64,000 nt of DNA from Candidatus Poribacteria bacterium (GCA_965198235.1 OZ240248.1:3776001-3840000), one strand, 5' to 3'. Shown: positions 5,171 to 54,989, counted from the stretch's first letter. The notes: generated by a model from the sequence alone, not told the origin. Numbers and translations: made by a program.

Positions 5171-7486
5171 ATGAAACGAATCGGTTGGAAATGGTTTTTA
5201 GGAGGCATTCTCCTTCTCAATATGGTATGGATGGCAAGTGCCGATGAAACAGCACTCAAAAATCCTGATGGCTCATGGAAGTGGACCAATCGACTTATCC
5301 ATGAGACCAGTCCTTACTTATTGCTCCACGCGCATAACCCCGTAGAGTGGTATCCGTGGAATGATGAAGCATTAGCGCGTGCGAAGAAAGAAAACAAGTT
5401 AATTTTTCTCTCTGTCGGATACTCCACATGCTATTGGTGCCACGTCATGGAACGGGAGGTCTTCTCAAATCCAGAAATCGCCGCGGTGATGAACAAAAAC
5501 TTTATTAATATCAAGATTGATAGGGAAGAACGTCCAGACTTAGACGAAATCTATATGACAGCGACGCAGCTCCTGATTCAGCGAGGCGGATGGCCCAACT
5601 CTGTTTTCCTCATCCCTAATTTAAAGCCGTTTTATGCTGGCACCTATTTTCCACCGACAGATATGCCCGGCAGACCGGGGTTTCCAACTATCCTTGATGC
5701 GGTGCATGAAGCTTGGGTAACGCGAGAGGCGGAAGTCATTGCAGCAGCAAACCAGATTTCAAGGACGATTGAGATGGCAACGAGTGGCGGGTTCACCGCA
5801 CTCACTACCACACCACTGGATAGATCCCTTACGACTGCTGCATTGGACTATCTCCGGACTACCTATAATCATGCCTACGGCGGATTTGGTGGCGCACCGA
5901 AATTCCCAAGTCCTGCCAATCTTGAATTTTTGCTAAGTGAATACGAGCGAAGATCGGGGTTACAAACCCCTCCCACAGAAAATGAATCGTTGTTGAAGAT
6001 GGTGACGTATACGCTTGATATGATGGCTTACGGTGGGATGTATGACCAGATAGGCGGCGGGTTTCACCGGTATTCTGTTGATGCAAAATGGCTCGTTCCG
6101 CATTTTGAGAAGATGCTTTACGATAACGCACAATTGGCGAAAGTATACCTCCATGCCTATCAGTTAACACAAGAAGATCGCTATCGGCGTATTGCTGAAG
6201 AGATCTTCGGTTTCATTTTCCGAGAAATGACGGCACCTGAAGGTGGATTCTATTCAGCATTGGATGCTGAAACAGATGCCGAAGAAGGAAAGTATTATGT
6301 GTGGACTGCCGATGAAATTCGGAAGATTCTTGGTAAAAAGCGTGCGGCACGTTTCGCTGGTGTTTATGGCGTTGATAAGGGACCTAATTTTGAGGGTAAA
6401 AATGTTCTCTATGTTCCTAAAGGCACAGCGGCGGAGGATGCTCTCAAGGAAGTAGAATCTGCACGAGAGAAACTCTTAACGGCACGCTTTGATCGCGAAT
6501 ACCCCTTGCTGGACACAAAAATCATTGTTAATTGGAACGGCTTGATGATAGACGCGCTCGCTTACGGCTATCAGGTGCTTGGGAAGGAGCGGTATCTTAT
6601 CGCTGCATCGAAAGCTGCCCGATTTATTCTTGACACCCTGAAAAAACCGGATGGTGAATTGTGTCATGCCTATACTGCAGGTGTTGTAAAACGGGATGTG
6701 TATCTTGATGACTACGCCTTTTTTGTCCGAGGTCTGCTTGGATTGTATCAGGCTACGGGTGATAAAGAGTGGTTGAATTCAGCAAGAACGCTGACTGATG
6801 GGATGATTCGACTTTTTTGGGATGACAAAAACGGAGGCTTCTATTACACGAAGGCGGATGCAAAGCATCTGATTGTGCGTACCAAGAAACCTTATGACTC
6901 CGCAATTCCGTCTGGCAACGCTGTCGCTGTCGCAAATCTATTGGCATTTGGGACGGGTTATCGAGATTATGCTGAAGAAACGCTGCGGAGTTTCGCTAAA
7001 TCCATGTCACAAAGTCCCTCGTCCTTCATGTATATGCACTTTGCCCTTAACCGTTATCTGACCGCAGGAGAAGGACTCAGTTCTGCAGCGCCGTCGATCG
7101 TAAGCGTGACCGCTGAAGTTAATGCCCAAAACAAAGGAATATACGATGTGATGCTTCAACTCAACATTGCTGAGGGGTGGCACATTAACGCGAACCCCGC
7201 GGGTCAAGATAATTTAATTCCAACAACTGTTACGGTGGATGCTGATACCCCGTTTGAAATTCTCGATGTAGCGTATCCGAAAGGGAGATCGACACGCTTT
7301 GAATTTAGTAACGAATCCTTGAATGTTTATGAAGAAAGCCTCACGATTCCGTTGCAGTTAAAACAGAAAGCGAATATGAAGCACGACAAAAACGTCCCAA
7401 TTACGCTAAAACTCACCTATCAACTCTGTAATGAAACCGAATGTTTGTTGCCGCAGACATTAGATATTCCGTTAGAAGTGCCGTAG
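5171..7486 (+). CDS. Secreted YyaL/SSP411-like thioredoxin + alpha/alpha-barrel protein with C-terminal DsbD-N-like domain
   Basis: [37 protein letters not shown]...[11 protein letters not shown]; C-terminal GWHINAN and [10 protein letters not shown]; signal peptide. Confidence 0.9.
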
Positions 7487-7556
7487 TTTTTCCCAATTAG
7501 CAGTGAGGGTCCTGCCACAACAGATGTATTTACAAAGGACACCTCCCACAATTTAC

Positions 7557-8033
7557 GGGACTCCCTTAAAAAGCCCAATCCTTTAGGTTTGGGTCCACCC
7601 CAGTAACGTCCGTGCTGGAGTCCAAAATAGATTTGACATTTCGTCAAAAATGTGGTATAATTTTATGTAACTTGCTGGACAATGCTCTGACCCCGCACAC
7701 TTGTGCGGGTGTTGTCCACCACTGTCAGAGGGGGTATAAACAAGTCGCAACTCTCACTGCGAGGCAACCTTGCTAAAAAACATGTATCGGTAGCAGCCCA
7801 TAAGTTTCGTAGACGTGAAATCCGTCACGCAGGATAACTGCTACCCCCCTTTTTCTTTGGCAGGCAGGGATAGTTTCCGTGAAAGTTTCCGCACGATATG
7901 CCCTCTATCCACTTAATTCAGGATAGTGGGGAATTGCCTGCTGGTGGAGCGATAATAAGACGTTCAACCCTTTCAGAAGAACGCAGTTGCTATGAAACCG
8001 AAGCCCACGCCTTTAGGCGTTGGGTGCTATCAC
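7557..8033 (+). mobile_element. Non-autonomous IS200/IS605-family element (no tnpA/tnpB)
   Basis: TTAC target at 7553-7556; left-end AAAG guide + hairpin CCCAATCCTTTAGGTTTGGG (7570-7593); right-end GAAG guide + hairpin CCCACGCCTTTAGGCGTTGGG ending TCAC (8000-8033); both guide/cleavage pairs obey the IS608 pairing rule. Confidence 0.8.
7633..7661 (+). promoter_or_regulatory. Consensus sigma70 promoter with extended -10, inside the IS element
   Basis: TTGACA (7633-7638), 17-nt spacer, TGnTATAAT (TATAAT 7656-7661). Confidence 0.85.
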
Positions 8034-8053
8034 GAATCCTACCCAATTCTGTT
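7668..8053 (+). ncRNA. Putative structured RNA ending in a TnpB omegaRNA-like scaffold plus ~20-nt flanking guide
   Basis: Stems 7676-7685/7709-7718, pseudoknot 7685-7691/7724-7730, 7789-7796/7838-7845, 7858-7867/7934-7943; 3' part GGTGGAGCGATAATAAGAC...GCAGTTGCTATGAAACCGAAGCCC resembles IS605 tnpB right-end RNAs; no credible ORF. Confidence 0.55.
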
Positions 8054-8081
8054 AGTACGCACTACCTTGGGAGGAGCTTGC

Positions 8082-8915
8082 GTGAAAACCTTTATTTCAA
8101 GTTACACTACGATATTTTTTCTGTTAGTGACATGTGTCATTGCATTTGCTGGTGTTGTTGAGGATCCTGTGCTCTATCTCGATGCCTCTGACAACCCTGC
8201 TCATCCGAAGGCATGGGAGAACCTCGGTACCGAAGGCGGTGAATTGCTTGCCGCAGACAAACCAATGGAACTCGAAGAAGGCGAAATTAAAATTCCTACC
8301 CTCGGTATCGTCCAGCCGAACGTGAAGTATTACACCACCACGGATTCCCATCAGACCTTTGGCGGTCCACCCAAGAAAAATACCCCGCTATTTTTCGAGG
8401 ACTGGACCTTGGAGTTCCTCTGTAGGCGCAACGGTGACTTTTTTGTTGAAGAGCATCACTTCGTCGGTTTCCAGAATAGTCCAAGAGAGGGCAAGCAGGG
8501 GATTCGGCTTTGGTTCCGTCCATCGCCTCAGAATCTGGACATCTCTATCCATGCCAAGGGGACTAAGCAAGCCGTTCAACCCCTTAACATTACGCTTAAC
8601 CAAGGTGAATGGAACTGGATAGCAGTCGTCGGTACGAGCGGTAAGTCGATTGTGGCGTATCAAAACGGTAAAGAGGTTAGCAAGCAACCCGGTTTTGATT
8701 TCGATAAGAAAATACCGATAAACGACATCTCTATCGGTGCTAATTCTTGGGATGAACGCCGTCGGAATTTTAACGGTTCAATCGCTATCGTTCGAGTTTA
8801 TGATAAAGCACTGACCGCAGCGGAGATCAACGGGAATATTGATGGCGCGTTTGCTGTTGATCCGGCGGACAAACTCCCGACGACATGGGCACGCGTAAAG
8901 CGCGGCTATGAATAA
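8082..8915 (+). CDS. Secreted LamG/concanavalin-like domain protein with C-terminal V-D-P..KL..TW..K motif
   Basis: GTG start after GGAGGAG; signal peptide; FNGSIAIVRVYDKALTAAEI LamG end; tail AVDPADKLPTTWARVK. Confidence 0.8.
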   Translation: MKTFISSYTTIFFLLVTCVIAFAGVVEDPVLYLDASDNPAHPKAWENLGTEGGELLAADKPMELEEGEIKIPTLGIVQPNVKYYTTTDSHQTFGGPPKKNTPLFFEDWTLEFLCRRNGDFFVEEHHFVGFQNSPREGKQGIRLWFRPSPQNLDISIHAKGTKQAVQPLNITLNQGEWNWIAVVGTSGKSIVAYQNGKEVSKQPGFDFDKKIPINDISIGANSWDERRRNFNGSIAIVRVYDKALTAAEINGNIDGAFAVDPADKLPTTWARVKRGYE

Positions 8916-8966
8916 TAGCGCGCATATACCTCTGGGTCGCGACGCCTTTCTCTCCGCAAAGGTTTT

Positions 8967-8990
8967 GTAGGAGCTACCTCCTGATCGCGA
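8967..8990 (+). repeat. GTAG-type REP, family A (GTAGGAGC...TCGCGA); other copies 11540-11563, 16360-16383, 24895-24985 (interrupted), 55363-55386
   Basis: 24-nt GTAG-footed imperfect palindromes with shared ends. Confidence 0.75.
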
Positions 8991-9106
8991 CCCTTTCTCC
9001 TTTCGATATTGACTCTTACGGAAACAGAAATGTCTGGACCTTACCCTATTCGTCCGTCCCACTACCTTGTTCTGGATGATCGCCTCATTGACGTTGCATT
9101 CCGCCT

Positions 9107-10306
9107 CTACAACGTCCCGGCGTGCGCCCGAATCTTCTGGAACGCGTCTAAAATTTGTTGCATATCGCCTGTGTCCCCTAAGAACATGGAATGTCCAAAA
9201 CTACAGACCTCTTCTCTGTAGACTCGTTCTGCGTTCGGGCAATTGAGCGTGCTATAATCAATCGCCTGGTCCCCAAGGTATTTGCGTGGTAATCCGAGCC
9301 GATCAAACAGTTCGGGGTTGCCGAAAGGACCTTCGTTGTAAATGGGTTCACCATGCGCACCGACCCCACACGGAACACCTTCTGCGCGGAGTGCTTCTAA
9401 GAACCTGTCGCGTGAAACACCGCCGAATTCCTCAGATACAAACCGGAAATCCCAATAGTAGAAACACCATCGCGTGGCACGCGCATCGCGCGGGATCGGG
9501 TGGAGCCCATCTATCGCTTCCATGCCCTTGGAGAGATATGCAATATTCCGTTCGCGCGTCTCTACCTGCTCTTCAAACCGTTCCAATTGATTCAGTAAGA
9601 GCGTCGCTTGGAAGTTGGTCATCCGCATATTCAGCTGTGCGAATTGACCTGCCTTTTCTGCGAGTGTTTCATCGTTTGTCAGCACCATTCCGCCTTCGCC
9701 ACAGGTGAGCGTCTTTCCCATCTGGAAGCTGAATGCGCCGAGGTGTCCGATTGAGCCGAGTCCTTTTCCGCGCCATTGTGAACCGTGTGCGTGCGCACAG
9801 TCCTCAATCACTTTGAGATTGCGTCTTTCAGCAATCTCCATGATCGCGTCCATGTCTGCAGGGTAGCCGCCGTTATGCACAGGGATAATCGCCCGCGTTT
9901 GGGGCGTAATGGCTTTCTCAATCGCATCGGGTGCGATATTATAAGTAAGCGGATCGATGTCAACAATCACCGGCACGGCGTTGACACAGACAGCCGATGT
10001 CCCTGTCGCGACAAAAGTGAGCGCGGGGACGATCACCTCATCACCGGCACTGATGCCAGCAGCCTTTAGTGCGCATTGTAACGCCACAGTCCCGTTTGCG
10101 AGTGGAATCCCGTATTTCGCATCCTGAAACGCCGCGAATTTTTCACCGACTTCATCGACTTTCTCGCGTCGGTTCCACGCACCACTCCGCAAGGTCTCTA
10201 AAAGTGCGTTCTCTTCGGTTTCATCATAAATGGGCCAACTTTTCCCTAAACTTCCTTTGACGATAGGTTCACCGCCATTAAGTGCCAACTTGGTTTCCAT
10301 GTCCAT
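9107..10306 (-). CDS. DegT/DnrJ/EryC1/StrS PLP-dependent aminotransferase
   Basis: NGTVAL, DEVIVPALTF, IEDCAHAHG, FSFQMGKTLTCGEGG. Confidence 0.92.
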   Translation of the reverse strand: MDMETKLALNGGEPIVKGSLGKSWPIYDETEENALLETLRSGAWNRREKVDEVGEKFAAFQDAKYGIPLANGTVALQCALKAAGISAGDEVIVPALTFVATGTSAVCVNAVPVIVDIDPLTYNIAPDAIEKAITPQTRAIIPVHNGGYPADMDAIMEIAERRNLKVIEDCAHAHGSQWRGKGLGSIGHLGAFSFQMGKTLTCGEGGMVLTNDETLAEKAGQFAQLNMRMTNFQATLLLNQLERFEEQVETRERNIAYLSKGMEAIDGLHPIPRDARATRWCFYYWDFRFVSEEFGGVSRDRFLEALRAEGVPCGVGAHGEPIYNEGPFGNPELFDRLGLPRKYLGDQAIDYSTLNCPNAERVYREEVCSFGHSMFLGDTGDMQQILDAFQKIRAHAGTL

Positions 10307-13758: not shown

Positions 13759-15117
13759 TTAGGCCCAACGAGGATTTCTGCCGCCGAACCGCTGCTCGCT
13801 GATGTTCCACAACTCTGATAACCCGAGTTGCCGAATGTGTTCCAACCCGGGTAGACACGGATCATTTATGCGGGTTAGCCATCGTTGGAGTTCCGCTTCG
13901 AGTTCTGCCCGCAAATCTTGTGAGTCCTCATCATCAATGAGATTGTTCAATTGATACGGATCGTTGTCGTTGTCGTAAAGCAACCAGCCTGTTCCGTCGT
14001 AGTGGCGCGCGTACGTATAACGGTGCGTGCGGGCACCACGCCACTCGCGAATACCAAAGTTAAAACCTTCACTTCCGTGCAAGGGGACTTCAAGCAACAC
14101 GGATTGTGGTTCGTTAATTGTATTGCCGAGCATCGCTTCTGAAAGGTCAATACCTTCCACACCCTCTGGAATTGATAAGTCGCATAAGGACAACATTGAC
14201 GGCATGAAATCCACGAGGCTTAGCAGGGTGTCGCGGGTAACGCCTGCTGGAATTCTGCGTGGCCAACGAACCATGAAAGGAATACGACTGGATTCGTCCC
14301 ATGGACGTTCTTTTCTGACATGTCCGTGGCTACCGAGCATATCGCCGTGGTCAGATGTGTAGACAAGGATGGTATCGTCAGCGATACCGATTTCGTCAAG
14401 CGCACCCATCAAACGTCCAAGATTTTCATCCAGAGCTGTGATATGCGCGTAGTAGCCGGAGAGATCGTTCCGTGTCGCGGGTGTGTCTACCGCATTCGGG
14501 CGTAACTGGATCTGTTCTGGTGGATACATCGCTTTGTAGCGTTCCGGCACATGTTCATACGGATTGTGTGGCGGTCCCCAACTTACATAGAGGCAGAAGG
14601 GTTCATCGGCATGATCGCGGCAGTATTCAATAGCTTTGTCGGTCTGGAACTCTGGTTCATAGCCGTCAATCTGGAATCGATTTCCGTCCGAGTCGTGGTA
14701 CGGGGCATTGAAATAGTCGTGGTGGCAATTCCAGCCGATCCAATCATCAAAGCCGAACCGCATCTCAGGTGTAATGAACTTGTCTCTGGGCATGCCGCCG
14801 AGGTGCCATTTACCGATGTAGCCGGTTGCGTATCCGGCTTCTTTGAAGACTTCCGCGATGCCAGTTTCCGTCAAAGGGAGCGGTAGATCGTTGGAGACGG
14901 CTTTGTGGTTCAACGGGTATTTGCCTGTCATCAGGCATCCACGCGCCGGCACACATATCGGGACATTAGTGAAGGTATTGGGAAAAAACATCCCTTCCTG
15001 TGCGAGTTGATCCATCGCTGGGGTCTGCACTTGAGGGTTGCCTGCGCATCCGACATCACATTGACGATGCTGGTCGCCAAAGACGAAGATTAAATTGGGT
15101 TTACGAGTAGTTTCCAT
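13759..15117 (-). CDS. Formylglycine-dependent sulfatase
   Basis: PNLIFVFGDQHR, CVPAR (CxPxR) LMTG, GKWHLG, TSDHG. Confidence 0.93.
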   Translation of the reverse strand: METTRKPNLIFVFGDQHRQCDVGCAGNPQVQTPAMDQLAQEGMFFPNTFTNVPICVPARGCLMTGKYPLNHKAVSNDLPLPLTETGIAEVFKEAGYATGYIGKWHLGGMPRDKFITPEMRFGFDDWIGWNCHHDYFNAPYHDSDGNRFQIDGYEPEFQTDKAIEYCRDHADEPFCLYVSWGPPHNPYEHVPERYKAMYPPEQIQLRPNAVDTPATRNDLSGYYAHITALDENLGRLMGALDEIGIADDTILVYTSDHGDMLGSHGHVRKERPWDESSRIPFMVRWPRRIPAGVTRDTLLSLVDFMPSMLSLCDLSIPEGVEGIDLSEAMLGNTINEPQSVLLEVPLHGSEGFNFGIREWRGARTHRYTYARHYDGTGWLLYDNDNDPYQLNNLIDDEDSQDLRAELEAELQRWLTRINDPCLPGLEHIRQLGLSELWNISEQRFGGRNPRWA

Positions 15118-18543: not shown

Positions 18544-19443
18544 TTATCTCCGTCTTGCTTTGATATGACCCCAAGTAACGCTCAAATGGCTCGCTGAAGG
18601 ACTGACATCAAGCCCTGTAGCTTCCATGTTGTTCTGAACCTCTGCTGCACTCAGAACGCGATCGTAAATTCGGAATTCGTCAATATACCCCTGAATCGTA
18701 TCGCAATCGCATCCATCTGACCGATCCCCAATGCCGAGGAGAAGCCCTCCCTTTGAAATCTTACCGCCCTTCATGGCGTACTTTTTTTCCTGTTTTCCAT
18801 TCACATAATAGTGAACCGTTTTACCATCATAGGTGCCAGTGAGGTGCAGCCACTCTTCAAGTGGGATGTCCTCCAGTACATTGTCCTGTGCAGCCACCGT
18901 TGATTGGCCACCGGCTCTGACGAAGAAGCCGTGTTGGTTGTCGTCATCGTCATAGTAAAGGCTCGCGACTGCGCTGTTCGTTGGCATATCGTCGAGTGAG
19001 ATAATCCGATTCCAACTGTCATCCAAGGCGTTGACGTAGACCCAACATTCCAAGGAGATCTCCTCCCAATCCCGATCGATTTTCGGTGGGTTTGAATCTT
19101 CAACGAGGAATCGGTCAACACTCCCATCAAAAAGGATGCACTCGCCGACTTTGCAATCGGAGGCGGGTGCGAGTTCAGGGTCCCCCTTAACAGCGGCAGC
19201 GAGTCCTGACAGGAGATCTACCGCCTCGGTTTTGATCTTTACCGTGTCTTTGTCGAAGGACCAATAGGCGATTAAGCCATCTTCAACCGCTCCGACAATT
19301 GCATCGGTAGGTTGGGCATTCCATCCGAGGAACGCGATAAGGAGAAGGGCGAATGCGCGTTTGGCATTCGCAAAGACTGTAAAGAACCGTGAATTTTCCA
19401 CAAAATGTCTGCTCTGAAAACGGGCACCGTTTTTTAGACGCAT
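18544..19443 (-). CDS. Secreted LamG domain protein with C-terminal V-S-P...HL..TW..IK motif
   Basis: GLIAYWSFD, WLHLTGTYDG, GYIDEFRIYDRVLSAAEV; tail DVSPSASHLSVTWGHIK. Confidence 0.85.
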   Translation of the reverse strand: MRLKNGARFQSRHFVENSRFFTVFANAKRAFALLLIAFLGWNAQPTDAIVGAVEDGLIAYWSFDKDTVKIKTEAVDLLSGLAAAVKGDPELAPASDCKVGECILFDGSVDRFLVEDSNPPKIDRDWEEISLECWVYVNALDDSWNRIISLDDMPTNSAVASLYYDDDDNQHGFFVRAGGQSTVAAQDNVLEDIPLEEWLHLTGTYDGKTVHYYVNGKQEKKYAMKGGKISKGGLLLGIGDRSDGCDCDTIQGYIDEFRIYDRVLSAAEVQNNMEATGLDVSPSASHLSVTWGHIKARRR

Positions 19444-25151: not shown

Positions 25152-25261
25152 CAAAAACGTTGAATAAATAGAAAACCCCAAAATCCGCGCAATCCGCGAT
25201 TCAGACGATGAACAACAGACAACCGACAACCCATCACAACACACAGGAGACAAAAGACCAG

Positions 25262-27235
25262 ATGAACCCTTTCAAAAAGAAGCATCGGGATTACAAATCC
25301 CTCCTACAGGGCGCGCAGATTCTCGTGACGCTTGCGGTGGCGATAGGCATGTTGTTCAGCATCACCCCCGAAGTAGATGGATTTATGGCGTTTGACCATC
25401 AGTCTCAACTTCCAGAGCATATGAGGAGAAAATTCAACAACCTCATCCGTCGGGTGCATAAGGATCAGTGGGTGATTGGCTATGCATACGCCGATCCTGA
25501 ATGGGGTGAACCTGCCGGGGTCTGCCCACCGGAGGCAAGACACAACGGCGCGGCGATTGAGGCAGCCATCACCGATGCCTTGCGCGCCTGGTTGCAGCCT
25601 GTCAAGGACTTGAACACCGGCAAACCCGTCGTCGATGACTTTCGCTATGTCCCGAACTTCGATGTGAGTAATGTGCCTGAGCTTAAGTTGTATGACCTGC
25701 GAATCGTTTTCTTCTGCGACGTTGACAAATCACGCGCATTGACAGGGTCAAGAGAGGCACATCCGCCACAGATCCACATGCACCGAGGCACAGATGTGGA
25801 CGAACGTTTCGAGTTTACCCTCCTGCACGAGATCGGTCATTCCTTCGGTTTACTGGATACCTATCGGAGACAGGAACTTACGCTCGAAGAACTCAGAGTC
25901 AGCAGGGGTGGCTTGCTTGCAACCATCGGACACCAACCCTCTTCGGTGATGTCCGGGCTGTACATCTCTCGCCCCGGTCCCAGACGCATCGCTCAGGACG
26001 ACGCAAACGGTATCGTTTGGCTCTATAAGTTCTATCACGAAAATCTGCCACTTGAAGATTGTATCTTCCCCGACTACGAGTTGGAGACATCTCCCGATGG
26101 GTGTCGTCCGAAGTCTCCACTCATCTTTGAAATCAAACATGGCCCTGATGAGCGCTTTGCGATCCAAGTTATTGAGCAGGATAGAAACACGGATGTCAAT
26201 GCCAAGGACGAAACGGGGTCAACGGCACTCCACCATGCGTTAGAAAAAGGGTATTCACGGCTGCTGGAGAAACTCTTGGTGCATTCAGACCTTGATGTGA
26301 ATGCGAGGAATGCCGAGGGAAGCACGGCACTGTTCTGGGCGGCAAAACGCGGGTCTTACGGTGTGACAGAGCGACTTCTGAAGCACAGGAAGATTGACGT
26401 GAACATCAGAAACACTGCTGGCACGACACCCCTGAAGGCAGCCGCAGCAGAAGAAAACGATCGCATCGTAGAGTTGCTTTTAGAACAGGAGCCCCGTGAA
26501 TCGGATTGGACAGGGGTTGATAAAACCGCTCCCGCACATCAGCGCTCGGTGTTTTACCTACTCCACGATCCGCGTCCATTGATTTTCCATGCGGGGTATC
26601 TGGGAACAGTCCTCGGGGGAGATGCGTTGTTCATTACACAGAAACGGGAAGACGCTTCCATAGAAAGTTATCTCAGCAAAGGAGACTTCACACTCGTGAG
26701 TCATTCGGGTGTCGTTGCGGAGAGTATCAAGATTCGGGAAATCGCATCGTTTCCCGGTGCGGACGGTGAAACAGGCAGCGTGCTTCTGGCAATCAGAGAC
26801 GTAGATCTCTCAGCGTATGAACCGTTACTGGTCTCAACAGACCCCATTCTCACAGAAACGGATGTCGAACTGCTGACGTATAAGTTTGGGTCGGGTATTG
26901 CGTTGAAAGGGAATGACAAAGATAACGCATTGAATCTTCCACTTCAGGTGCGTGCGTGTGTCTCGGTGCCGCATGTCGGGTTGGGTGCCAAAGGTTTATG
27001 GCAGCATACGTGTGGGCCTCCCAACAGCGTTGCGTCGGGGGCATTGCTATTCGATGAGAAGGACGGGATACTCATCGGTTTCTATACCGAACAGGAGGTC
27101 GAGGAGATTCTTGGAGACGGGCTTCCGCTTGCCAACAGTGTGTCTGAGGCGTTGATACGGCTTGTCGACGCCAAGCCGGTAAGTCCGAAAAACAGATTGA
27201 CGACGACATGGGCGGAAATCAAACAGGAGGACTGA
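25262..27235 (+). CDS. Secreted metzincin metalloprotease + 3 ankyrin repeats + degenerate trypsin-like domain + C-terminal motif (paralog 1)
   Basis: HEIGHSFGLLD and SVMSG Met-turn; DVNAKDETGSTALH ankyrins; tail PVSPKNRLTTTWAEIK; RBS CAGGAGA before ATG 25262. Confidence 0.85.
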   Translation: MNPFKKKHRDYKSLLQGAQILVTLAVAIGMLFSITPEVDGFMAFDHQSQLPEHMRRKFNNLIRRVHKDQWVIGYAYADPEWGEPAGVCPPEARHNGAAIEAAITDALRAWLQPVKDLNTGKPVVDDFRYVPNFDVSNVPELKLYDLRIVFFCDVDKSRALTGSREAHPPQIHMHRGTDVDERFEFTLLHEIGHSFGLLDTYRRQELTLEELRVSRGGLLATIGHQPSSVMSGLYISRPGPRRIAQDDANGIVWLYKFYHENLPLEDCIFPDYELETSPDGCRPKSPLIFEIKHGPDERFAIQVIEQDRNTDVNAKDETGSTALHHALEKGYSRLLEKLLVHSDLDVNARNAEGSTALFWAAKRGSYGVTERLLKHRKIDVNIRNTAGTTPLKAAAAEENDRIVELLLEQEPRESDWTGVDKTAPAHQRSVFYLLHDPRPLIFHAGYLGTVLGGDALFITQKREDASIESYLSKGDFTLVSHSGVVAESIKIREIASFPGADGETGSVLLAIRDVDLSAYEPLLVSTDPILTETDVELLTYKFGSGIALKGNDKDNALNLPLQVRACVSVPHVGLGAKGLWQHTCGPPNSVASGALLFDEKDGILIGFYTEQEVEEILGDGLPLANSVSEALIRLVDAKPVSPKNRLTTTWAEIKQED

Positions 27236-47571: not shown

Positions 47572-48676
47572 TTATTTCTGCTGAGCCTTCATTTTGAGGT
47601 AGCTTTCGATGAAGGGGTCTAAAGCACCATCCAACACAGCGTTAACATTACCCGTTTCGACATTTGTGCGCAAATCCTTGACGCGTTGGTACGGGTGCAG
47701 GACGTACGACCGAATTTGGCTCCCAAAGTTAATTTCTAAGCGTTCGCTTCGCTGCTTTGAAAGTTCTGCCTCCCGTTCCGCACGATATTTCTCATGAAGA
47801 CGGGAACGGAGTAATTTCATAGCGATTTCTCGGTTCTTATGCTGCGAACGTTCATTCTGGCATTGGACGATAATTCCGGTGGGTTTGTGTGTAATCCGAA
47901 CTGCTGAATCTGTGACATTGACGTGCTGCCCACCCGCACCGCTCGCGCGATAGAAATCTATCCGTAAGTCTTCGGATTGAATATCCACTTCCACGGTGTC
48001 GTCGATTTCAGGGGTCACGTCGATAGCGGCGAAGGAGGTATGCCGCCGCTTGTTGAAATCGTAGGGGGATAACCGAACGAGCCTATGCACGCCCGCTTCT
48101 GCTTGAAGATAACCGTAAGCCGAAGCACCTGTAACGAGGATTGTTGTGCCTTTGATGCCGGCTTCGTCCCCTGCGGTGAGGTCTACGATTTCGGTCTGAT
48201 AGCCGCGCCGGTCGCACCAACGGAGGTACATACGCATCAACATCCCCGCCCAATCCTGTGCGTCAATCCCGCCAGCACCAGAGTGAATGTTGAGGATTGC
48301 GTTGTTCTCATCAAATTCACCCGTTAGCATTAAGCGGAGTTCCATCTGTTCGAGATCTCGTGTGACAGTGTCCAATCCGTCGGCAATCTCGTTTTGGAAA
48401 CTCCCATCGTTCTCTTCGGTCGCGAGTTCGAGCAGGGTTTGGATATCTTCAACTTTGAGAGCGAGGTCTTCGTACGCCCCAATTTCATCTCGGAGGATGG
48501 AGATTCGTTGGTTAACTTGTTGAACGCGTTGCGTATTGCTCCAAAAATCAGGAGCAATTGTCGCCTCTTCAAGTTCTGTTAATTCTTTTCGTTTTTCAGC
48601 CAGGTCAAAGATAACCTCTGAGTTCTTGGAGGCGGGTCTGCATCTCTTCAGCCTGGTTTTTTAAATCTACAAGCAT
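47572..48676 (-). CDS. prfB: Peptide chain release factor 2 with programmed +1 frameshift
   Basis: ATG at 48676, AGAGGT-TAT-CTT-TGA-C slippery site at 48604-48619; the +1 frame joins the ORF containing SPY and GGQ motifs. Confidence 0.96.
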
Positions 48677-52991: not shown

Positions 52992-54989
52992 TCACTCCAC
53001 TCGTTTGATTTCTGCCCAGGTTGTCGTCAACCTGTTTTTCGGACTGACGGGTTTTGCGTCGACAAGGCGTATAAGTGCCTCAGAGACGACATCGGCAAGC
53101 GGCAACCCATCCCCGAGAATCTCATCGCTCTCCTGCGACCTATAGAAACCGAGGATCGTTCCTGTCTTCTCATGAAATAAAATGGAGCCGTCCGAGACGC
53201 TGTTCGCAGGTCCGCAGGTGTGCTGCCAGAGATCCAATGCTCCCAATCCCGCATGCGGCACGGAGACACACCTCCGCACCCGAAGCGGTAATGCCAACGC
53301 CTCACCCTGATCCGCTCCTTTCAGCATAATCCCCGAACCGAACTTATACGTCAATAACTCTACATCCGTCTCCCTTAAGTTCGGATACAATGACAACGCA
53401 AGCGGGGCATACCCCGAGAAGTCTACATCTCGGATTGCCAAAAGCACGCTCCCTGTCTCGCCATTGCCACCCGGAAACGATGCCAACGTCCTCACCTTGA
53501 CATCCTCGGCAACCAACCCATCATACCCCACCAGAGAAATATCATCTTGATCGAGGAACTGCTCTACGCTATTTTCTTCTCGTTGCTGTGCGATGAACAA
53601 TGCGTCTCCACCCAGCACCGTTCCGAGATATCCAGCGTGGAAAAGCCGTGATTGGTCGGGACCCGGCACCAGCAGATAAAACACAGAGCGATAATTCGCA
53701 ATCGAGGTCGCGTCTATCTCCCGCCACGCAGCTTCACGCGGTTCCTGCGTCAGTAGCAACTCCACGATACGTTTGTTTCCCTGTGTTACCGCTTCCTTCA
53801 GGGGTGTGTTGCCACCCGCACCCCTGATATTTACGTCAACCGCCTTGTGCTTGACGAGCCGTTCCGCTGCACCGTAAGACCCACGCGTCGCCGCCCAGAA
53901 CAACGCCGTGCTTCCCTCCGCATCTTTCGCGTTGACCTCAATATCCTTATGCCAAAGAAGCTTCTCCATCAGTTTTGGATACCCTTTCATCGCCGCATAA
54001 TGCAGTGCCGTCAAACCCGTCTCGTCTCTGGCGTTGACATCGGTGTTTTCATCTTCATCGATGACCTTGATAGCCATCATGGCCTCAGTGTTGTGTTTAA
54101 TTTCAAAGAGAAGCGGAGACTTCGGACGACACCCATCGGGAGATGTCTCTAACTCATAATCAGGGAAGATACAATCTTCGAGGGGCAGATTTTCGTGATA
54201 GAACTTGTAGAGCCAGACGATCCCGTTGGCATCATCCTGACTGACGCGGGTGGGAAGAGGAGGCGGGACGTTGCCACCCGCCATCACCGAAGCGGGTTGG
54301 TGACCGATCGTTCTATCCAGTCCTCCCCTACTGACTCTTAATTCTTCCGCCTCTCGCCTCAGTATTATATACGTGTCCCCTAAACCGAAGGCGTGACCGA
54401 TCTCGTGCAGGAGAGCGCCTGAAAATCTTGGATCCACATCCGTGCCCTCACGCATATTAAGTGCTGGGGGGATCGCCATATCCACCCCTACCAACGCAAC
54501 CGATCTCCCAGCCTTGCAGAAGAAAAAGATTCTCAAGTCATATAACTGAAGTTTAGCCGTATCTTTGACGAAAATTCCATTCTTATCCTTGATGAGAACT
54601 TCAGCCCCGTCTCTTATGAAAAAATTCGGCACAAAGCGAAAGTCAGAGACGACGGGTTTGCCGGTATTCAAGTCCCGGACGGGTTGTAACCATGCGTTCA
54701 AGGCTTGGGTGATGACTTCCTCTATCGCCTCACCGTTGTGTCTTGCCTCCGGTGGGCAATCGCCCATATACGCATAGCCAATCACCCACTGATCCTTATG
54801 CACACGACGGATGAGGTTGTTGCGTTTTCCTATGAATTCTTCTCTGGTTCTATGGTCAAACGCCCTAAATCCGTCCGCTGTGGGGGCACTGCTGAACAAC
54901 ACGCCTATCGCCACCGCAAGCGTCAGGAGCATCTGCGCGCCTTGTAGGAGGGATTTGTAATCCCGATGCTTCTTTTTGAAAGGGTTCAT
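52992..54989 (-). CDS. Secreted metzincin metalloprotease + ankyrin repeats + degenerate trypsin-like domain + C-terminal motif (paralog 2)
   Basis: HEIGHAFGLGD, SVMAG; ankyrins; long blocks identical to 25262-27235. Confidence 0.85.
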   Translation of the reverse strand: MNPFKKKHRDYKSLLQGAQMLLTLAVAIGVLFSSAPTADGFRAFDHRTREEFIGKRNNLIRRVHKDQWVIGYAYMGDCPPEARHNGEAIEEVITQALNAWLQPVRDLNTGKPVVSDFRFVPNFFIRDGAEVLIKDKNGIFVKDTAKLQLYDLRIFFFCKAGRSVALVGVDMAIPPALNMREGTDVDPRFSGALLHEIGHAFGLGDTYIILRREAEELRVSRGGLDRTIGHQPASVMAGGNVPPPLPTRVSQDDANGIVWLYKFYHENLPLEDCIFPDYELETSPDGCRPKSPLLFEIKHNTEAMMAIKVIDEDENTDVNARDETGLTALHYAAMKGYPKLMEKLLWHKDIEVNAKDAEGSTALFWAATRGSYGAAERLVKHKAVDVNIRGAGGNTPLKEAVTQGNKRIVELLLTQEPREAAWREIDATSIANYRSVFYLLVPGPDQSRLFHAGYLGTVLGGDALFIAQQREENSVEQFLDQDDISLVGYDGLVAEDVKVRTLASFPGGNGETGSVLLAIRDVDFSGYAPLALSLYPNLRETDVELLTYKFGSGIMLKGADQGEALALPLRVRRCVSVPHAGLGALDLWQHTCGPANSVSDGSILFHEKTGTILGFYRSQESDEILGDGLPLADVVSEALIRLVDAKPVSPKNRLTTTWAEIKRVE

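Follow-up and report, generated by a model that had tools for sequence, protein, structure and literature searches.

Within a 64,000-nucleotide stretch of a Candidatus Poribacteria genome (GCA_965198235.1, OZ240248.1:3776001-3840000; hereafter the window, numbered from its first letter), the 477 bp from 7557 to 8033 on the + strand probably constitute a non-autonomous, ORF-less derivative (PATE) of a tnpB-only IS200/IS605 element of Poribacteria. We assign this reading, including the guide-RNA mechanism proposed below, a probability of about 0.7. From its parent the element has kept the promoter, a structured leader, and the whole of the RNA module downstream of tnpB, and a short structured spacer now stands where the ORF was. 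Siblings in four other Poribacteria genomes have the same architecture and carry compensatory base changes.

Ends and boundaries of the element

Reading the sequence directly, we found IS608-type ends on both sides of the element. On the left, the TTTAC flank (7552-7556, +) supplies the cleavage and target site TTAC (7553-7556), which adjoins the element's first nucleotide at 7557 and is the presumed TAM of the cognate TnpB. The left end (7557-7632, +) opens with a 17-nt linker that separates TTAC from the left hairpin and whose last four nucleotides form the guide AAAG (7570-7573); the hairpin itself, CCCAATCCTTTAGGTTTGGG (7574-7593), is the imperfect palindrome CCCAATCC-TTTA-GGTTTGGG. At the right end (8000-8033, +), the guide GAAG (8000-8003) lies directly 5' of the hairpin CCCACGCCTTTAGGCGTTGGG (8004-8024; CCCACGCC-TTTA-GGCGTTGGG, with one bulged T), and the sequence 3' of this hairpin, TGCTATCAC, ends at 8033 with TCAC (8030-8033), nine nucleotides past the hairpin. 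Both imperfect palindromes are thereby subterminal, and they share one orientation on the top strand. The first-pass annotation had described just such a segment, bounded by TTAC and an AAAG hairpin on the left and by a GAAG hairpin and TCAC on the right, and all of its coordinates were confirmed. Its two similar, same-orientation hairpins also held up: a degenerate hairpin pattern matched three times in the 64-kb window (the two + strand hairpins and the near-palindromic reverse of the first), compared with a mean of 0.02 matches in shuffled windows, none of 100 of which yielded three.

The right boundary was fixed by comparison with other genomes. A search of public genome contigs with a degenerate hairpin-plus-AAG pattern returned at least 120 loci (designated below by L and a number), many of them from Candidatus Poribacteria and the remainder from several bacterial and archaeal phyla. 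At least 14 right ends in public Poribacteria loci are related to that of the window and have the common form …GAAG-hairpin-TG[C/G]TATCAC; they are alike up to TATCAC and unlike directly after, with unrelated flanks following TCAC, and this divergence places the boundary at 8033. When positions 5500-10000 were compared by blastn with the loci listed, many alignments stopped at exactly 8033, and several began at 7552 or 7553. Only the element aligned, and never its flanks, indicating that the window's own genome lies outside the loci listed. Related right ends in different flanks thus occur in the family, and the 64-kb window holds no second copy of the element. A blastn search of a plasmid collection in distant mode, with 7540-8060 as the query, gave no match.

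Guide and cleavage sites

In IS608, a 4-nt guide lies 5' of each hairpin, that of the left end being AAAG; cleavage on the left occurs 3' of TTAC, 19 nt 5' of the hairpin, and on the right at TCAA, 10 nt 3' of the hairpin (PMC3201880). The first-pass annotation had invoked the pairs AAAG/TTAC and GAAT/TCAA for IS608, and AAAG, TTAC, and TCAA are all found in PMC3201880; GAAT was not found there. The further claim, that GAAG and TCAC would follow the same rule, can be judged from the hairpins of the loci listed, where N, in a cleavage tetranucleotide T-N-A-C, can be predicted from the base with which the guide begins. Among the matches listed, 99 of 118 hairpins have the rule-conforming T-N-A-C in the expected place, and for 17 of 118 one or more of the three non-complementary tetranucleotides can be found there. 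Again among the matches listed, guide base A goes with TTAC upstream (38 ends; in 38 left-type ends TTAC lies 9-22 nt 5' of the AAAG guide), G with TCAC downstream (32 ends), and C with TGAC downstream (21 ends). Both ends of the window element obey this rule, AAAG with TTAC and GAAG with TCAC, as the annotation had proposed, and the parent elements described below have TTAC or TTTAC at the matching left position.

A sister family of Poribacteria tnpB elements (L001, L020, L033, L062, L063, L088, L099, L105, and L113) has right ends of the form …CAAG-hairpin-…TGAC, in which the altered guide and the altered site conform to the same pairing. The TnpB of this family is about 50% identical to that of L075; its members match the scaffold model described below more weakly (42-59 bits), and the leader is present in L020, L033, and L062.

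One feature of the left end is unusual. Directly 3' of the left hairpin the window has TC (7594-7595) in place of the A-T that IS608 needs, where changing AT to CG abolished the synaptic complex (PMC3201880). Among the matches listed, 36 of 43 left-type ends have A-T at this point, and when compared with the other ORF-less elements the window's left end has an 8-nt gap there. Because it lacks this A-T, the window copy may be poorly mobile today, and we regard its present mobility as doubtful.

Loss of the coding region and relation to tnpB elements

None of the ORFs in 7557-8033 is TnpA-like or TnpB-like, and a Pfam scan of 47 large ORFs from the window detected neither Y1_Tnp nor OrfB_IS605. 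A tblastn comparison of the L075 TnpB with the window produced only a 14-residue trace (7861-7902, E 5.3), and no tblastn match from 12 TnpBs to any of the five ORF-less elements had an E value under 0.027. Agreement of the ORF list, tblastn, and Pfam therefore upholds the claim that the element has no tnpA or tnpB ORF. With IS200/IS605 left and right ends and no transposase or accessory ORF between them, the 477-bp element has the composition of a PATE, and its ends, its adherence to the guide rule, and its scaffold match support the earlier description of it as a protein-free IS200/IS605 derivative. A probable relic of the tnpB start region remains at 7767-7786 (+), where, by eye, ACC-TTG-CTAAAAAACATGTAT corresponds to ACC-ATG-AAAACC of L075.

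Searches for known RNA families were similarly negative. No Rfam 15 family matched positions 6500-9500 at E values up to 1, nor did any match the whole window at the gathering score; seven related loci, searched at E up to 1, gave only a chance miRNA match. No tRNA or tmRNA was found in the window. No group I intron (Intron_gpI) or other ribozyme was found in these searches at E up to 1, and we do not class the element as an IStron.

Elements of about 1.45 kb that encode only TnpB, and that have a left end (TTAC), promoter, and right end of the window's type, are present in Candidatus Poribacteria. In L075, L058, L065, L021, L025, L018, L041, and L059, the left end and promoter lie about 1.45 kb upstream of the right end, and the single ORF between the ends of the L075-type elements (372-375 aa) encodes TnpB, with the Pfam domains OrfB_IS605 and Cas12f1-like_TNB; the L075 protein matches the ISDra2 TnpB structure 8bf8 with an E value of 7e-43. 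L069, an autonomous Poribacteria element with TTTAC, shares its left hairpin sequence exactly with the window and carries both tnpA and tnpB, its TnpA being recognized as Y1_Tnp (Pfam, 2.7e-37). Both kinds of partner that the first-pass annotation had envisaged, (i) TnpB genes with matching right ends and (ii) a tnpA-bearing type, hence occur in the lineage.

Promoter and downstream gene

The promoter is a sigma-70-type TTGACA-17-TATAAT with a TG extension (7633-7661, +) that matches the consensus at 12 of 12 positions. It is the only such sequence without a mismatch in the 64 kb; allowing up to one mismatch, the pattern has four matches in the window, compared with a shuffle mean of 0.21. Over 7553-7662 the window aligns to the tnpB elements across their left ends and promoters, positions 7620-7662 are 90% identical to L025 and L106, and the perfect consensus recurs in L025, L035, and L075. 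By this homology it is the conserved tnpB promoter, inherited from the parent elements. The first-pass annotation had already recognized the internal perfect promoter, which is indeed unique in the window but is no new feature of the element.

The element lies in the intergenic region between a DUF255/thioredoxin gene and a gene for a LamG-domain protein, which follows it in the same orientation. The longest ORF of this LamG gene (7992-8915, +) begins with an ATG at 7992, which still falls within the element's right end, but the likelier start is the GTG at 8082, which has GGAGG 7 nt upstream and is followed by a hydrophobic N-terminus; automatic annotation may thus add a false, transposon-derived extension of 30 residues to the protein. 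Elsewhere in the window, ankyrin-repeat, sulfatase, and LamG-domain proteins are encoded at 25208-27235 (+), 52992-54989 (-), 13759-15117 (-), and 18544-19443 (-). This gene content, taken with homologs of the element that, among the loci listed, come from Candidatus Poribacteria MAGs only, suggests a sponge-associated Poribacteria genome. The gene for release factor 2 (47572-48675, -) occupies two reading frames; the classic site of programmed +1 frameshifting, CTTTGAC (about 48607-48613), lies some 24 codons after an ATG near 48675.

An omegaRNA-like scaffold at the right end

A covariance model, R1, was built from the 3' ends of ten tnpB-linked elements only. Against the window it gave a single match, at 7856-8033 (+; 145.4 bits, E 3.6e-34), which covers model positions 1-160 of 160 and ends exactly at the right boundary, so that the 3' 178 nt of the element form a full-length match. 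Three ORF-less siblings (see below) scored 152 (L040), 137 (L035), and 111 bits (L052). Positions 7860-8033 align with the last ~40 nt of tnpB and everything downstream of it up to the boundary, and the last 13-14 codons of the former gene are still traceable, as a weak match, at 7861-7902. RNAalifold, applied to 13 scaffold sequences, returned 31 pairs, 10 of which show compensatory change. When only the four ORF-less scaffolds are counted, pairing holds in 96.5% of cells, with compensatory change in 10 of 36 pairs, figures favored by the fitting of that alignment to the model.

This module overlaps the 3' end of tnpB and stops at the right-end boundary, as an omegaRNA does, and it has no match to a curated omegaRNA or IS605-associated RNA family. 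By its position and its linkage to tnpB, we interpret 7856-8033, which contains the last tnpB codons and the right end, as the omegaRNA scaffold of this family. The first-pass annotation had placed an omegaRNA at the right end, and the full-length R1 match supports this. The element may express this omegaRNA, as the annotation had proposed, but the predicted RNA would not be a bare omegaRNA, having a leader and a hairpin with a U-rich tract upstream. The 20 nt of flank that follow the scaffold (8034-8053, +), beginning GAATCCTACCCAATTC, would, from their position relative to the scaffold end, hold a putative guide of 16-20 nt. The 16-nt putative guide has no second match with three or fewer mismatches in the 64-kb window, and the annotation's other suggestion, a domesticated guide-RNA gene, found no support.

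A conserved, structured leader

Between the promoter and the spacer lies a second conserved RNA structure, a 5' leader at 7666-7751 (+). A covariance model of it, R2, built from tnpB-linked leaders only, matched the window at these positions (28 bits, E 7.2e-6) and nowhere else in it. With default filters and a cutoff of E 0.1, the same model missed the leaders in the other ORF-less elements; these were assigned by an alignment (A3) and by counts of base pairs, which also bear on the window's leader. In the window, the predicted fold (all +) consists of P0 (7670-7674 with 7741-7745), which begins at the predicted +1; P1 (7677-7684 with 7710-7717); the hairpin P2 (7692-7699 with 7702-7709); a pseudoknot between the P1 loop and a segment after P1 (7685-7691 with 7724-7730); and, by eye only, P3 (about 7718-7720 with 7733-7735).

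Support for this fold comes from covariation. In an alignment of 14 leaders (11 from tnpB elements, three from ORF-less elements), 90.2% of cells are paired, compared with 67% in shuffles; none of 500 shuffles matched the observed figure, and slid controls gave 31-45%. Compensatory changes occur in 22 of the 29 pairs of this alignment. The fold is kept at low sequence identity: 46-59% among the leaders of the window, L035, and L040, and 38-59% when comparisons with tnpB leaders are included. Leaders of ~85-90 nt were found in every tnpB 5' UTR of the family (among them L075 2099-2192, L058 693-783, and L025 3262-3352, - strand), and they have no Rfam match. A full-text literature search returned no account of such a leader, the IStron paper being its only result. 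Judged by eye, the topology has, to our knowledge, no convincing counterpart among HDV-like, pistol, or group I folds.

The 3' strand of P0 is tandemly duplicated just before the ATG in full-length elements (CGCGATA-CGCGATA in L021), which suggests an alternative pairing that could gate translation. That the fold is kept in elements whose ORF is gone speaks for a role beyond control of tnpB translation, and the leader could represent a functional RNA new to TnpB transposons. It might act as a stabilizer of the 5' end, a switch for read-through or attenuation acting together with the hairpin and U-tract of the spacer, a signal for TnpB loading or processing, or a small ribozyme. If the leader governs how the guide RNA is expressed, stabilized, or loaded, it would bear on nuclease regulation in these transposons, and it may then inform the design of compact TnpB expression cassettes. 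We consider this strongly covarying 5' UTR pseudoknot, which survives loss of the ORF, the more useful by-product of the analysis.

Spacer hairpin and sibling elements

The spacer contains a long hairpin (7789-7845), closed in the window by GGTAGCAG (7789-7796) and CTGCTACC (7838-7845) and followed by CCCC and TTTTTCTTT to 7858, T-rich from 7850; the feature as a whole (7789-7858, +) belongs to ORF-less elements only. All five of them have the long hairpin and then a U-rich tract, and, by eye, the outer stem varies on both sides among them. A profile of the last ~160 nt of the tnpB coding sequence, run with nhmmer at E up to 10 against the five spacers, found nothing. A terminator scan did not flag 7789-7858; in our model it may act as a weak terminator or attenuator upstream of the scaffold.

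Four further ORF-less derivatives were recognized among the loci listed, homologous to the window element over their whole length. L035 (OZ246979.1), L052 (JAAXHD010000357.1), and L106 (OX639973.1) have intact ends and no ORF, the L106 locus ending before the 3' part of its element. The fourth, L040 (OX638352.1), has lost the left hairpin and has a weakened promoter, indicating that ORF-less elements of this type do decay. One architecture recurs in the five elements, each from a different genome, and the homologous spacer between leader and scaffold that is common to all of them indicates one diverged lineage and not five separate deletions. Beside the ORF-less L035, OZ246979.1 carries the tnpB element L041, whose right end is the same, so ORF-less and tnpB elements have resided together at least once. 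No homology beyond 12 nt was detected among the flanks of L035, L040, and L017, and there is consequently no sign of a single inherited insertion. The right ends of L017 (1-88) and L035 (2405-2493), in different genomes, are followed by 12 nt of flank of which 10 are identical; this likeness may be coincidental, or both elements may have inserted into a short repeat common to the two sites.

Proposed mechanism and alternative explanations

We propose that the inherited promoter makes a transcript of ~370 nt that would start at about 7668 and run across 8033 into the flank, comprising the leader, the hairpin with its U-rich tract, and then the scaffold. TnpB encoded elsewhere in the genome would bind and trim the scaffold, with the flank GAATCCTACCCAATTC, next to the TTTAC TAM, serving as the guide. 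A Y1 TnpA acting in trans would excise the element and insert it next to TTAC; the empty allele would read ...CAATTTAC|GAATCCTACCC..., and the TnpB complex would cut this empty site, TTTAC|GAATCC..., whereupon recombination with an element-bearing copy would restore the element. Cutting of the empty donor joint, with restoration by recombination, has been published for TnpB elements (PMC10055086).

More tentatively, the ORF-less elements may be a self-propagating, RNA-only lineage and not a one-off deletion product, with the leader possibly a new functional RNA; we think this stronger interpretation somewhat improbable at present. The transcript of such a lineage could have three structured modules: a double-pseudoknotted leader of ~85 nt, a hairpin with a U-rich tail, and the scaffold.

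Several other explanations were weighed against the derivation from a tnpB element. The element might affect its host as a mobile promoter, its consensus promoter reading outward into the LamG gene. Promoter and gene share an orientation, a terminator scan flagged nothing on the + strand from the promoter to 8600, the probable GTG start at 8082 has its GGAGG, and the downstream protein carries a Laminin_G_3 domain (Pfam). Such an effect would nevertheless be a side effect that leaves the conserved scaffold and leader unexplained, and the sibling elements sit in unrelated flanks; it is also compatible with the element being a PATE and does not exclude it. We rate promoter export as having a minor chance. 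Alternatively, the main product might be a leader sRNA of ~190 nt that ends at 7789-7858, the scaffold being transcribed little or only conditionally through attenuation. It is in keeping with this idea that the leader begins at the predicted +1, that its structure is strongly conserved, and that all five ORF-less elements have the long hairpin and U-rich run. The U-tracts, however, are short or interrupted (in the window, CCCC parts the stem from the U-tract), the closing stem has a loop of at least 41 nt, and the terminator scan passed over the hairpin; moreover, a scaffold that was never transcribed would hardly have kept its fold among the ORF-less copies. We therefore consider a short leader sRNA an unlikely main product.

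The element could also be what is left of a tnpB element after loss of its ORF, decaying, without function, and under no selection, its RNA features being an inheritance only. Its single copy in the window, the missing conserved AT of its left end, and the state of L040, with no left hairpin and a degraded promoter, would all fit simple decay. Against this stand the single architecture of five elements in five genomes, leaders (window, L035, and L040) that are only 46-59% identical with helices kept by compensatory changes, scaffolds that are 96.5% paired among ORF-less copies with 10 of 36 pairs compensatory, and a window promoter that is still a perfect consensus; pure decay accordingly seems to us quite improbable. 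The presence of two similar, same-orientation hairpins in an intergenic region might, finally, recall a REP/RAYT-type repeat pair, or chance hairpins around an ordinary small-RNA gene. Many dispersed copies would be expected of such repeats, but the element's two hairpins are the only ones in 64 kb, and they obey the guide and cleavage rule of TnpA. Homology to tnpB elements at either end, in the promoter, and in the 3' module refutes this last explanation, to which we give almost no credence.

Comparison with known systems

Like IS608 of Helicobacter pylori (PMC3201880), the window element has the left site TTAC and left guide AAAG, subterminal imperfect palindromes, and a right hairpin with a bulged T, and the distances from site to hairpin are close (19 and 10 nt in IS608, 17 and 9 nt in the window). 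Unlike IS608, it has TCAC and GAAG as its right site and guide, it lacks tnpA and tnpB, and it is without the A-T that IS608 needs 3' of the left hairpin. The parents (L075 and others) resemble IS1341-type elements in encoding TnpB only, and their RNA module, which takes in the last ~40 nt of the ORF and stops at the right end, has the position of an ISDra2-type omegaRNA; the window copy differs from both IS1341-type elements and ISDra2 in having no ORF, and its scaffold has no Rfam match.

Closest in kind are the PATE-like elements of Geobacillus stearothermophilus, which a preprint (Meers et al. 2023; PMC10055086) reports to "often encode omegaRNAs" and to need TnpB in trans. These too have IS200/IS605 left and right ends and no protein-coding gene. 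They belong to another phylum, whereas the window family is from Candidatus Poribacteria, and in that family conservation extends to the promoter, the leader with its pseudoknot, and the hairpin of the spacer, none of which we found described in PMC10055086. Standalone omegaRNAs, mobilized without an effector or transposase and found beside effector loci, were described by Altae-Tran et al. (2021, as summarized in PMC10691335) and are reported to have been shown to act in trans (Altae-Tran et al. 2023; PMC10691335); the window element is likewise a probable omegaRNA locus with no effector, its own action in trans being putative. A Clostridioides difficile PATE with IStron ends (bioRxiv 10.1101/2023.11.20.567912) is similar in that it lacks an ORF, has ends of the IS605 family, and carries structured RNA on its 5' as well as its 3' side. 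In contrast, no group I intron, nor any further Rfam family, turned up in the present searches at E up to 1, and the 5' module of the window, at ~85 nt, is far below the size of a group I intron.

Since omegaRNA-encoding PATEs and trans-acting standalone omegaRNAs are already in print, the idea of an ORF-less omegaRNA element is not new. The conserved leader and spacer modules may be the new part, with the proviso that supplements of the earlier papers may already show promoters or 5' modules of PATEs. What the window adds is a clean natural example of a probable guide-RNA-only transposon in an uncultured, sponge-associated phylum, with ends, promoter, and scaffold that can be traced to tnpB-bearing parents, and it supports the published view that TnpA, TnpB, and the omegaRNA are separable modules.
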